Shown here one piece after another: positions 34,601-37,600 of a DNA stretch of 64,000 bases (positions within the stretch are counted from its first letter, which is position 1; every line of letters begins with the position of its first letter). A program made the position numbers. The stretch comes from Escherichia coli (lineage in GTDB: Bacteria; Pseudomonadota; Gammaproteobacteria; Enterobacterales; Enterobacteriaceae). The stretch lies in assembly GCF_044324875.1 (NCBI RefSeq), contig NZ_CP172185.1. One strand, 5' to 3'.

Positions 34601-37600
34601 GTTCACAGGTTTGTCTTTTCGTTCGTAGGGGATTCATTCGCGATTGGCGTTGCGCAATGGTGGGATACGGTAAAGTTTTACCGCAGTGATTAATGATGTG
34701 AAGTCAATCCAAATCAATGGAGATCTCTCATCATGAACCAACCAATACACAATGCTTACTGGTTATCCCGTTTTGACAGCCTGCTCGACAGTGCCCTGGC
34801 GCAACACCGTGCCGTCTCGTTCATCCGGGTGGATTTACGGTTTCCTGAGTATATGCCTGCCACCATCATGGACTCCGGGCCGGATTCAGCGGTGATTTCC
34901 CGTTTTTTCGCCTCCCTGAAAGCCAAAATTCAGGCTTACCAGCAGCATAAGCGACGTACCAGTCAGCGTGTGCATGCAACCAGCCTGCGTTATTTCTGGT
35001 GCCGGGAGTTCGGAGAGGAAGAAAACAGGAAACATTATCACGTGATATTACTGCTCAACAAAGATACCTGGTGCTCGCTCGGGGATTTCAGCGAACCATC
35101 TTCGCTGGCGGCGATGATCCAGGAGGCATGGTGCAGCGCTCTGCATCTTGAGCCCTGGCAAGGCGATGGTCTGGTCCATTTTTCCAGGTGGAAGCCTTTT
35201 CGTAAACCAGCATCGTCTGATGCCCGTCCTTCTTCCGGTGACACCCCTTTGTCGGGTGGATGTTCTGATACCAGGAAGGCTGCAGACAAAAAGCCGGGTG
35301 AAGCCGCTGTTCTCTGGATCAAGCGTGGTGATGTGGCAGCGATGCAGAAAGCCCGGAAAAGAGCCCGTTATCTCGTGAAAAATCAAACGAAGCAGCATGA
35401 CGGTTCTGGTCAACGTAATTATGGTTGCAGCCGTGGGCCGGGGCGTCTGCTGGATGGCAGGTGAAGTCTGTAAAACGGTATCCGGTGCCAGGGGGGGGAT
35501 ATCACGGTAAGGGCGTCAGCCAACGTCTTTCGCTCGTATTCTGATAACCCGTCCTGAAGTCATGTATCTGCTTCCATTCTCATGTTCATATTTCTCTGAC
35601 GCTTTCACTGTCTGTCATCGGAAGTACCGATTTATTTTGGTGCTGCGCACTTACGGCCATTCACGGAAGAGGATTGTGGTGAACAGTAGGAGTCTGGCTG
35701 CTGGCGAGGGAAGGTTCAGGACTGGTATGGGGTTTAGTGCTGGAGGATGACTTTGAATCCCGGATTGACCAGTGAGGGGGCAGTGAGAGGATGCTCTGGT
35801 GTAACAGGTCTGGATTACAAAATATAAAACCGGTTGTACACTCGTAACGGGTAAAAGGATACGGGCAATAACACGTGGTACCCGGTGAGACTGGCTCTTG
35901 TATCACATTACCGGGAATATTCTGGCAGGTGAAATGTTCTGATAAGAATCATCCTGAGGGAGGATACAACGGATATGAACGTTATTGACAGCCGCATTCG
36001 TGATGTGAAATTTGGTGAAAATGTGAAAGTCGTCATGCCAGTAAACCTCTATGAATGTGAACTGGGGGATGATGTTTTTATCGGTCCCTTTGTGGAAATA
36101 CAGAAGGGATGCATCATTGGCAACCGGAGCCGAATTCAGTCCCACAGTTTCATCTGTGAGAACGTCATTTTAGGTGATGCCTGTTTCATCGGTCATGGCG
36201 TAACTTTTCCTAATGATCTGTTTAAGTGTGGTGGTCCCGATACCTCTGCAGAAAGCTGGATACGCATCGTATTAGGTAACACTGTAACAGTGGGTAGTGG
36301 AGCGACCATTTTAACAACAGAAATTTGCAGTGGAGCTGTGATTGGTGCTGGTAGTGTGGTTACAAAGCCCGTGCTGGTAAAAGGCGTGTATGCGGGTAAT
36401 CCGGCCAGACTTTTGAGAACGCTTTAATTATTGAATCCAATATTAAACCAGACAGACAGTAAACATAATACTGTTCCGGATATCGCTTGCCGCAGGAACC
36501 TCCTTAACATTCAGGAAAATAAAGCTTTTATTGCTGCTATGTACCATAAGAGACAGAAGTAATTGATTTACCAGTATTACACCTGTTGAAGCTATGGTTA
36601 TTCACCTTTTATTTTTTGAGCAGCGTATTTATACTTCCCGGAGCATTGTTTAAATATAATCGCCCGGGATTGATTCGTATGGCTCTTGAACAGGAAATCG
36701 CAAACCTTGTAAACGAGTTTGTCGCGGCTGGTCGTCCATCCTGTCGTGACCAGACCTTTGATGAACGCCGTGCCGGATATATCGCAAGTACTGCTCTGGC
36801 CGGCGATACAGAAACCCGCGTAAACATCAGTGATGTGATTATTGACGATGTTTTATTGCGCATATTTTCGCCTTTAAACGATGATGGGGTGTTATCCGCA
36901 ATTGTCTATTATCATGGTGGCTGTTTTGTCAGTGGTGGTTTTGTAACCCATGATAATCAGTTGCGACAGCTTGCTTTCCTGAGCGGTTGTCGTGTCATTG
37001 CTGTACAATATCGATTAACGCCGGAACATATTTATCCTGCGGCACATGACGATGCTGAACATGCCGCTAATATTGTGTGGCAACACGCAGAAATGTTGAA
37101 AGTTGATCGCAACAGAATAACGTTAATGGGGGATAGCGCTGGGGGACATCTTGCACTGATAACAGCACTGCGGGTTAAAAACATCGGTCAGTGGTTACCG
37201 CGAAAATTAATACTTATTTACCCTATGCTGGATGCCACAGCATCATGTGATAGTTACAAATTAAACGGTAGTGACTATGTGCTGACAGCAGACACGTTTC
37301 TTAGTGGTTATGAGGCTTATTTTTCCGGTCAGGATTTAGAACATCCGGAAGTGAGTCCATTATTCAGGAATGATTTCAATGGGTTACCACCTGTTCATGT
37401 CATCACAGCGGAATATGACCCATTACGCGATGAAGGTGAGGAACTGTTTTCCCGTATGATTCAACAAGGAGTAAAGTGTACCGCCCAGCGTTATCTCGGT
37501 GTCATTCACGGTTTTTTCCAGCTTGGCGGCATTAGCCAGACAGCCCGTAATCTGATGCAGGATATTTGTGGGATTGTTAAATAATCACGTAACAAGCAGC

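Follow-up and report, generated by a model that had tools for sequence, protein, structure and literature searches.

A hexapeptide-repeat acyltransferase and a family IV esterase as neighbouring, probably independent cargo of a CP4-57-type island of Escherichia coli

Described relatives of the island and of its two cargo enzymes

Islands of the CP4-57/CP4-6 kind have been described at the pheU, pheV and selC tRNA sites (PMC6174562). They carry YfjI, YfjJ/YagK, the YfjP GTPase, antirestriction, RadC and CbtA/CbeA genes, and the island found in our 64,000-nucleotide window (the whole stretch of E. coli DNA that was analysed) matches them both in this backbone set and in its mosaic, IS-ridden build. 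It differs from them in adding a fairly common acyltransferase (in ~9% of E. coli genomes) and a rare esterase module. The two genes are neighbours in the variable cargo of this mosaic island (Table 1); their status as island cargo, lying between YfjJ-like and DUF3987-like genes, had been put forward in an earlier sequence-only reading and is borne out by the CP4-57-type backbone around them. Close homology to a core metabolic enzyme, an alternative which that reading had kept in view, is seen for neither gene, and a literature search by RefSeq protein accession and gene names returned nothing on either of them.

Among characterised enzymes, WlbB (3mqg/3mqh), the N-terminal domain of FdtD (4mzu), QdtC (3fs8) and the Helicobacter pullorum dTDP-3-amino-sugar N-acetyltransferase (7s3u) are, like the island acyltransferase, left-handed β-helix (LβH) proteins without an N-terminal globular domain, and WlbB, 7s3u and the FdtD domain are also of similar length (145-190 aa). 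Sugar N-acetyltransferases of type I (PglD/PerB/VioB) have an N-terminal globular domain of ~90 residues ahead of the β-helix, together with a catalytic His (PMC9271549); the island acyltransferase, in which the helix begins at about residue 8, lacks this domain and thus falls outside type I.

For the esterase, the described relatives are PestE (2yh2), EST2, AFEST, three metagenomic enzymes (EH1AB1, Est8, LAE6) and E. coli Aes, with which it shares the Abhydrolase_3 domain, the HGG and GDSAG motifs, and the triad's Asp and His. Unlike these characterised family IV esterases, it belongs to a subfamily from Enterobacterales that is an uncharacterised clade. This clade has a resident member, an alpha/beta hydrolase encoded at the chromosomal fdhE-fabY (yiiD) locus of E. 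coli (WP_001162704) and Enterobacter, which is 67-69% identical to the island esterase over its full length and has the same motifs and family assignment.

Table 1. Features of the cargo segment and its flanking genes (positions in the window)
Feature	Coordinates	Strand	Remarks
YfjJ/YagK-domain ('inovirus Gp2 family') gene	34733..35464	+	Upstream; PF11726, 127 bits
LβH (hexapeptide-repeat) acyltransferase	35975..36427	+	150 aa, β-helix only; intact; RefSeq WP_112038229 'acyltransferase'
Acyltransferase-esterase spacer	36428..36678	.	251 bp, AT-rich (36% GC); holds a module junction
Spurious 5' extension of the esterase ORF	36586..36678	+	TTG start, hydrophobic peptide; outside the gene
Family IV / hormone-sensitive-lipase-type carboxylesterase	36679..37584	+	301 aa, no signal peptide; intact; RefSeq WP_112038228 'alpha/beta hydrolase'
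Esterase-yfjI spacer	37585..37830	.	Esterase/yfjI module junction at 37620-37625
YfjI family protein (DUF3987; PHROG match with the annotation DNA helicase)	37831..39423	+	Downstream; RefSeq start 37831, ORF 37621-39423

The acyltransferase and the esterase

The acyltransferase gene, whose ATG is preceded at 8-12 nt by a strong Shine-Dalgarno sequence (GAGGGAGGA), encodes a member of the hexapeptide-repeat superfamily (Pfam Hexapep PF00132, 60.2 bits against a cutoff of 27). Its AF2 model (pLDDT 94.1) shows short β-strands all along, and every top Foldseek match obtained with this model was an LβH protein. The best folds were WlbB, FdtD (TM 0.83; rmsd 2.0-2.3 Å over 150 columns, with residues 7-146 aligning colinearly to residues 7-146) and the H. 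pullorum enzyme 7s3u (TMq 0.79/TMt 0.82). Generic LβH proteins, YrdA for example, nearly equalled these top fold scores.

In profile comparisons, the four closest PDB families were all β-helix-only sugar N-acetyltransferases (E 1e-15 to 3e-15). A 'V-T-F-x-N-D' loop motif is common to these enzymes and to the acyltransferase and could be aligned between them. Residues H57, H74, N80, D81 and the GNPAR motif are invariant in the acyltransferase family alignment (31 members for N80-D81), and N80-D81 align to the 'TND' of QdtC, FdtD and 7s43. Thoden et al. 2009 are said to have described, for QdtC, a role for the conserved N159-D160, which lie in an extended loop after the F/L-T-N-D turn. The NeuD family TIGR03570 reached 61.3 bits (cutoff 160.8), with the C-terminal coils alone aligning.

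Judged by these similarities, which are modest (~25-28% identity; profile E ~1e-15), the acyltransferase most resembles N-acetyltransferases, i.e. amide makers, and not xenobiotic or polysaccharide O-acetyltransferases. It is a cytoplasmic LβH enzyme, presumably trimeric and acetyl-CoA dependent, and since its closest characterised relatives are β-helix-only nucleotide-amino-sugar N-acetyltransferases, it most likely N-acetylates an amine, the choice of N- over O-acylation being what we infer from this kinship. At such identity the acceptor may be other than a nucleotide sugar. No aminotransferase, isomerase/dehydratase or glycosyltransferase gene lies within ±6-20 kb of the acyltransferase, either here or in seven homologue contexts, so the physiological acceptor cannot be assigned to a sugar pathway. 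The statement of the sequence-only reading that the substrate cannot be deduced from the sequence stands for this enzyme as well as for the esterase.

The esterase ORF, taken as 36586-37584, matches Abhydrolase_3 (PF07859) with 225.2 bits against a cutoff of 25, and its best PDB match is PestE (2yh2; E 1e-53, full-length alignment). Both family assignments of the earlier reading, hexapeptide acetyl/acyltransferase and HSL-family esterase, are thereby confirmed. The two genes within its span of 35975-37584 are real too and lie on the plus strand, but the ORF start at 36586 is not the true start of the esterase. The TTG at 36586, which adds 31 hydrophobic residues suggestive of a signal peptide and of secretion, is an ORF-calling artefact; the gene begins at the ATG at 36679, since all nine close homologues (67-94% identical) begin there with 'MALE/MTLE/MPLE', and RefSeq agrees. 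The protein has the features of family IV/HSL: the oxyanion motif HGG (residues 79-81), the nucleophile elbow GDSAG (151-155, with Ser153), Asp247 within DPLRDE, and His277. All ten aligned sequences have HGG, the serine of GDSAG and H277, and D247 is kept in the nine close homologues. The enzyme is thus a cytoplasmic serine carboxylesterase of family IV/HSL, with Ser153, Asp247 and His277 as its triad and HGG at its oxyanion hole, and is expected to hydrolyse short- or medium-chain esters. Among NCBIfam equivalogs, it remained under the cut-offs of Aes (139.5 vs 389), LipP1 (230.6 vs 350) and the chloramphenicol hydrolase EstDL136 (156.1 vs 500).

These scores bear on the suggestion that one or both genes confer xenobiotic or antibiotic resistance, the first as an acetyltransferase like Vat or CatB and the second as a chloramphenicol hydrolase like EstDL136. 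Weak NCBIfam matches of this kind do exist for both proteins, the island is mobile, and some acyltransferase homologues (in Enterobacter and Mangrovibacter) adjoin GNAT acetyltransferases and a metallo-β-lactamase-fold gene. The acyltransferase, however, scores far under the curated cut-offs (Vat_ABCDEFH 38.1 vs 300, VatC 39.9 vs 425, CatB 30.6 vs 350), as does the esterase for the hydrolase; the Vat/CatB alignment spans only generic C-terminal coils (residues 75-148); and the esterase is equally near many promiscuous metagenomic esterases. Close homology to xenobiotic acetyltransferases, for which a check had been suggested, was not found for the first gene, sugar N-acetyltransferases being closest in both sequence and fold, and we regard a resistance function as quite improbable.

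Comparison of the island copies gave dN/dS values of 0.12-0.30 for the two genes, and comparison with distant homologues gave 0.09-0.10. Both are real genes under purifying selection.

Module structure and distribution

Pairwise BLAST resolved the segment into three recombination modules (A at 34647-36455, B at 36576-37625, C at 37620-40045) with sharp boundaries, separated by spacers that vary between islands. Module A comprises the YfjJ-like gene, a 510-bp spacer and the acyltransferase. Homology to islands carrying the acyltransferase only ends at 36432-36455, while homology to the esterase module starts at 36576, and the final ~five codons of the island esterase are replaced at its junction with the next module. 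Other esterase-carrying islands have ~180 bp extra between esterase and yfjI. The sequence 3' of the acyltransferase is an HTH pseudogene and an hns fragment in the acyltransferase-only islands, and an IS element in Salmonella. As to yfjI, it occurs without the esterase in ~990 E. coli genomes, and without either cargo gene in strain C5. Repeats (direct or inverted) or IS ends on either side of the esterase module, which would have pointed to transposition, were sought, and only short, chance-level matches were seen. In none of 5426 E. coli genomes does the acyltransferase abut yfjI to give an 'empty site', which argues against a simple insertion of the esterase. Between 35400 and 37900, no predicted promoter or terminator rose above shuffle expectation, and the sole match of an Rfam scan of 33-45 kb for spacer RNAs was an IS3 ALIL frameshift pseudoknot. 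Since no terminator was detected between the acyltransferase and the esterase, their read-through co-transcription is possible, and it is only by inference that they would be transcribed separately.

The distribution of the two genes was determined by megablast of 35975-37620 against 5426 complete E. coli genomes. The acyltransferase was found in 508 of them and the esterase was covered in 3; in the remaining 505, homology stops at query position 458-481, i.e. 5-28 bp past the acyltransferase stop codon. A sensitive blastn search with the esterase alone recovered matches of >90% identity in the same 3 genomes only. In one of these (Z1323MEC0001) the esterase is frameshifted, with the acyltransferase intact. 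Wherever the island esterase occurs in E. coli, namely in the 3 complete genomes and in a metagenomic contig (L021), the acyltransferase lies directly upstream, and the three copies carrying both genes appear to descend from one arrangement, so that the sample is effectively one.

The resident fdhE-fabY esterase is present in about half of the E. coli genomes (~2640/5426) at a resident chromosomal locus, whereas the island esterase is mobile-island cargo and is closer (78-81%) to copies in mobile regions of Serratia and Cronobacter than to the fdhE-fabY copy. The island esterase is a xenologue of the fdhE-fabY esterase, a copy that moved horizontally and belongs to an esterase family of Enterobacterales.

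Beyond the island lineage, the two genes were not found side by side in any of the contexts examined (homologues of 60-84% identity), and no acyltransferase adjoined an esterase on any of the 372 matching plasmids. Homologues of the acyltransferase (61-83% identity) stand alone, without the esterase, in Mixta, Mangrovibacter, Erwinia, Vibrio and Enterobacter. Those of the esterase (67-81%), located in a Cronobacter lambdoid prophage, in a Serratia integrase/IS region and, for Enterobacter and E. coli, at fdhE-yiiD, have no LβH neighbour. Two apparent exceptions were discarded: (i) a Mixta calida Abhydrolase_3 gene lying 3 kb from the acyltransferase homologue is only 24% identical to the esterase and on the opposite strand, and (ii) a 150-aa gene adjoining the Serratia esterase is unrelated to the acyltransferase. 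Carriage by phages was also considered and dismissed, the closest 'phage' records being mislabelled bacterial contigs, with no genuine close phage homologue.

Relation between the two genes

The sequence-only reading had taken the two enzymes as a pair with opposing chemistries. Such a functional pair would act on one substrate, either in a cycle of acetylation and deacetylation or by modifying a small molecule or a surface polysaccharide in successive steps. The genes do adjoin on one strand, no terminator is predicted to separate them, the esterase in E. coli always has the acyltransferase upstream, and both genes are under purifying selection. Against this, 505 of the 508 acyltransferase carriers have no esterase, one of the three genomes with both has the esterase as a pseudogene, 251 bp with a recombination junction separate the genes, and neither neighbours the other in any other genus examined or on plasmids. 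Moreover, neither protein has a signal peptide, and no flippase, glycosyltransferase or sugar-pathway gene adjoins them. The chemistries themselves are probably not opposing: since the acyltransferase resembles amide-making N-acetyltransferases, and amides are atypical substrates for HSL esterases, one would not expect its product to be undone by a carboxylesterase. A conserved two-gene operon would combine co-distribution with adjacency across unrelated contexts, and the two genes display neither. On this evidence, the proposed pairing is not upheld, and we consider it quite unlikely that the two enzymes share a substrate.

A toxin-antitoxin-like or anti-phage module, with the acyltransferase as effector and the esterase reversing or controlling it, could be imagined from the variable slot that the genes occupy in a mobile island with several toxin-antitoxin and anti-restriction genes, and from the occurrence of one esterase homologue as a moron in a lambdoid prophage. 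No PADLOC-DB v2 model, however, matched the acyltransferase, the esterase, YfjI or the YfjJ-like protein at E ≤ 0.01, and homologues of both genes are ordinary chromosomal genes in other Enterobacterales. In 505 genomes that lack the esterase the acyltransferase is stably kept, as it is next to a frameshifted esterase, which argues that it is not a toxin in need of neutralising. A defence role of this kind seems extremely unlikely.

Based on the distributions of the two genes (508 vs 3 genomes), which point to separate acquisition and not to a working pair, we consider it very probable that the acyltransferase and the esterase are separate, independently assorting accessory genes that have become neighbours by chance, and not a coupled system. 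Given that the esterase in E. coli always has the acyltransferase upstream, and that no empty site was seen, a lineage-specific functional link may nevertheless exist in the rare island variant carrying both. One form of it, to which we give very little credence, is that both enzymes work on one small molecule, the esterase for instance removing an O-acyl group and the acyltransferase then N-acetylating the product, for detoxification or immunity or as a novel type of protective module borne by the island, and that most islands have lost the esterase. We give as little credence to the idea that the β-helix-only acyltransferase of 150 aa, widespread in E. coli and in numerous other Enterobacterales, acts on an amine which is not a sugar and which no characterised LβH enzyme uses.

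The present findings guard against reading a coupled acetylation/deacetylation system into two neighbouring cargo genes, and matter little beyond annotation. Were either enzyme to modify an antibiotic, a host molecule or a phage molecule, the mobility of the island that carries it would gain relevance; nothing here points in that direction. For annotation, the start site of the esterase is corrected, and the gene can be recorded as a copy, now mobile, from a chromosomal family of Enterobacterales. The small, uncharacterised LβH N-acetyltransferase-like gene emerges as fairly common in YfjI/YfjJ-type islands of E. coli (~9% of complete genomes).

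Gene calls and island setting

Open reading frame calling and Pfam searches confirmed both genes that the sequence-only reading had placed between YfjJ-like and DUF3987-like genes, at the coordinates tabulated below. Over 35500-39500 the window matches E. coli LH50-c (NZ_CP100500) at 100% identity; in that strain the two genes carry the generic RefSeq annotations 'acyltransferase' and 'alpha/beta hydrolase'. In an alignment of the esterase with nine close homologues (67-94% identical) and one distant paralogue, every close homologue begins ('M[APT]LE…') at the methionine encoded at 36679; we therefore take the esterase to be a 301-aa protein starting there. 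The hydrophobic extension that results from a start at TTG 36586 was rejected as an artefact.

Both genes lie in an island of the CP4-57/CP4-6 type, which also has an integrase, ParDE, CbtA/CbeA-type toxin-antitoxin genes, RadC, an antirestriction gene, DUF932, a YfjP-like GTPase, several YfjJ-like paralogues, YfjI, an AlpA-like HTH gene and a UvrD-like helicase. Such islands are found at the pheU, pheV and selC tRNA sites (PMC6174562); a search of the window returned no tRNA gene. The window is collinear with LH50-c, yet contains extra insertions or replacements, including IS21-family and IS3-family elements, neither of which is present at the corresponding position of the otherwise near-identical LH50-c island.

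Features of the island region (window coordinates)
Feature	Coordinates	Strand	Remarks
IS21-family element	29233-31651	-	istA 548 aa, istB-like 332-aa ORF; just upstream of yfjJ-like gene
IS3-family element	33350-34563	+	just upstream of yfjJ-like gene; textbook ALIL frameshift pseudoknot at 33631-33747 (Rfam RF01497, 116 bits)
Module A	34647-36455		yfjJ-like gene, spacer, acyltransferase
YagK/YfjJ-domain ('inovirus Gp2 family') gene	34733-35464		YfjJ/Gp2-like paralogue upstream of cargo genes; matches PF11726/REP_ORF2-G2P
Spacer	35465-35974		510 bp; ~93% identity in roughly 650 E. coli genomes; no Pfam-matching ORF, no Rfam match; 81-aa minus-strand ORF sometimes called
Acyltransferase ORF	35975-36427	+	intact, 150 aa; Pfam Hexapep 60.2 bits (cutoff 27)
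Module B	36576-37625		esterase
Esterase ORF as called	36586-37584	+	intact; Abhydrolase_3 225 bits and related esterase families
Module C	37620-40045		yfjI
DUF3987/YfjI gene	37621-39423		downstream of cargo genes; RefSeq start 37831
AT-rich interval	39424-40985		1.56 kb, 36% GC, between yfjI and next YfjJ-like gene; ~78-90% identity among related islands; no convincing ORF, no Rfam match
YfjJ/Gp2-like paralogue	40986-41552		matches PF11726/REP_ORF2-G2P
YfjJ/Gp2-like paralogues	41761-42366, 42741-43382		no Pfam match; related-island counterparts annotated 'inovirus Gp2 family' or hypothetical
Replacement segment	49864-62231		~12 kb in place of ~1.2 kb of LH50-c; also holds M20 peptidase, SBP_bac_5 solute-binding protein
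Sugar-utilisation cluster	50220-54276		33-43% GC; PTS EIIA, EIIC-GAT permease, PfkB kinase, class II aldolase
IS66 transposase	55005-56543		within replacement segment

Distribution and modular structure

Megablast with 35975-37620 gave matches in 508 of 5426 complete E. coli genomes. The esterase was covered in three of these (LH50-c, PapRG-04-4 and Z1323MEC0001), while the remaining 505 matched the acyltransferase only, at 96-97% identity, with the match ending 5-28 bp past its stop codon. When the esterase was searched by itself with a sensitive blastn, the same three genomes came back and no other above 90% identity. Pairwise BLAST against related islands resolved three sharply bounded modules (A, B and C), with spacers of variable length between them. 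In the acyltransferase-only islands of ERP001 and ACN002 the gene is followed by an HTH pseudogene and an hns fragment, the Salmonella copies have an IS element next downstream, and strain C5 shows the order yfjJ-like gene, IS110 fragment, yfjI, with neither cargo gene. As the acyltransferase directly abuts yfjI in no genome searched, the region is built from alternative segments and not by simple insertion. The spacer 35465-35974, which moves with the yfjJ-like gene and the acyltransferase as one module, may hold the acyltransferase promoter; a strong Shine-Dalgarno sequence precedes the latter gene.

One observation speaks for the functional pair implied earlier: every E. coli copy of the esterase known to date lies downstream of the acyltransferase. 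However, the flanking DNA in the carriers has co-diverged to 88-92% identity, so that these carriers look descended from one arrangement, and the constant adjacency looks like a single event. Also against a pair are the 505 genomes devoid of the esterase and its frameshift in Z1323MEC0001, where the acyltransferase is intact. In that strain the esterase copy (13387-14330 of the locus) has a small insertion and a frameshift at about codon 173-177, and the acyltransferase shows 97% aa identity to the window copy. A toxin/antidote or defence module is less probable still, given the stable retention of the acyltransferase without the esterase and the absence of any PADLOC match.

Outside the island lineage, acyltransferase homologues (61-83% identity) stand alone in unrelated contexts (Mixta, Mangrovibacter, Erwinia, Vibrio, Enterobacter), and esterase homologues (67-81%) occur in a Cronobacter lambdoid prophage, a Serratia integrase/IS region and the Enterobacter chromosomal fdhE-yiiD locus. 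The two proteins co-occurred by tblastn in the E. coli island loci only, among all loci examined, and none of 372 plasmids matching either gene had both adjacent. The Cronobacter dublinensis homologue (6001-6918 of its locus; 78% identical) is a lone opposite-strand 'moron', with the replication/YdaT region on one side and RusA/Q antiterminator genes on the other.

Both genes have a GC content of ~45% (GC3 0.38-0.42), against a window mean of 49% and 54% for the neighbouring yfjJ-like gene, which is consistent with a foreign origin. Both are under purifying selection: pairwise dN/dS against other island copies was 0.12-0.30 (acyltransferase) and 0.18-0.20 (esterase), and against distant homologues 0.09-0.10 for either.

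Identity of the two enzymes

A single-sequence search and a 31-member family profile (E about 1e-15) ranked as best solved relatives of the acyltransferase QdtC, the FdtD (WxcM-like) N-acetyltransferase domain, two Helicobacter pullorum dTDP-3-amino-sugar N-acetyltransferases and WlbB; LpxD, GlmU, Maa/LacA and Vat/CatB all scored lower. H57, H74, N80-D81, W95 and GNPAR are invariant in the family, N80-D81 aligning with the 'TND' loop of QdtC and FdtD. The AF2 model (pLDDT 94.1) is nearly all β-helix; its best match by E-value is WlbB, while FdtD superposes over all 150 residues (TM 0.83, rmsd 2.0-2.3 Å) and 7s3u gives TMq 0.79/TMt 0.82. The protein has no counterpart of the N-terminal globular domain (~90 residues) by which PglD, PerB and VioB are classed as Type I enzymes (PMC9271549), and scores far under the NeuD-family, Vat and CatB cut-offs. 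Given these relatives, the fold, the missing domain and the sub-cut-off scores, we read it as a putative β-helix-only, acetyl-CoA-dependent N-acetyltransferase, for which the family suggests a trimer and acetyl-CoA as donor. No aminotransferase, isomerase or glycosyltransferase gene lies near it or in the homologue neighbourhoods examined, and membership of a sugar pathway is thus not supported.

The esterase belongs to the family IV/HSL carboxylesterases of canonical GDSAG type (HGG 79-81, Ser153 in GDSAG, Asp247 within DPLRDE, His277). All sequences in the alignment keep HGG, the GDSAG serine and His277; Asp247 is kept in the nine close homologues. Among PDB entries PestE comes first (E 1e-53), ahead of promiscuous metagenomic esterases, AFEST and EST2, with E. 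coli Aes at about E 1e-27. NCBIfam scores fall below cut-off for LipP1 (230.6 vs 350), chloramphenicol hydrolase (156.1 vs 500) and Aes (139.5 vs 389). The enzyme has no signal peptide, and would hydrolyse short or medium-chain esters in the cytoplasm. A role of the two genes in resistance, as a Vat/CatB-like acyltransferase and an EstDL136-like esterase, is very unlikely, as only weak sub-threshold matches point to it.

An alpha/beta hydrolase 67% identical to the island esterase lies at the chromosomal fdhE-fabY locus of ~2640 of 5426 E. coli genomes, probably including LH50-c, which has a second esterase match. The Enterobacter gene at the corresponding locus is 69% identical, and the mobile-context copies of Serratia and Cronobacter are closer (78-81%). 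The last ~five codons of the island esterase are unlike those of all chromosomal homologues, because DNA homology stops at 37568, within the 3' end of the gene. In E. coli MLI107 the paralogue (4773-5681 of the locus) sits between fdhE and fabY (yiiD), beside a nadS/hypothetical gene pair and yiiE/yiiF; Enterobacter hormaechei has an orthologue at the matching locus, and our search found no literature on this paralogue.

The proposed pair

The closest relatives of the acyltransferase acetylate amines, and if it likewise makes amides, its product would not be a target for reversal by a carboxylesterase; the chemistries described earlier as 'opposing' are then probably not so. The probable amide chemistry and the independent distribution together make a functional pair very unlikely. 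What stands of the proposal are the family assignments and the island cargo; on distribution, module junctions, the frameshift and the separate contexts, the two genes appear not to be a pair. Each joins a known superfamily, within which its specific subfamily is uncharacterised, and the comparisons are of use in correcting the esterase start, mapping the modules and indicating that the adjacency is incidental.
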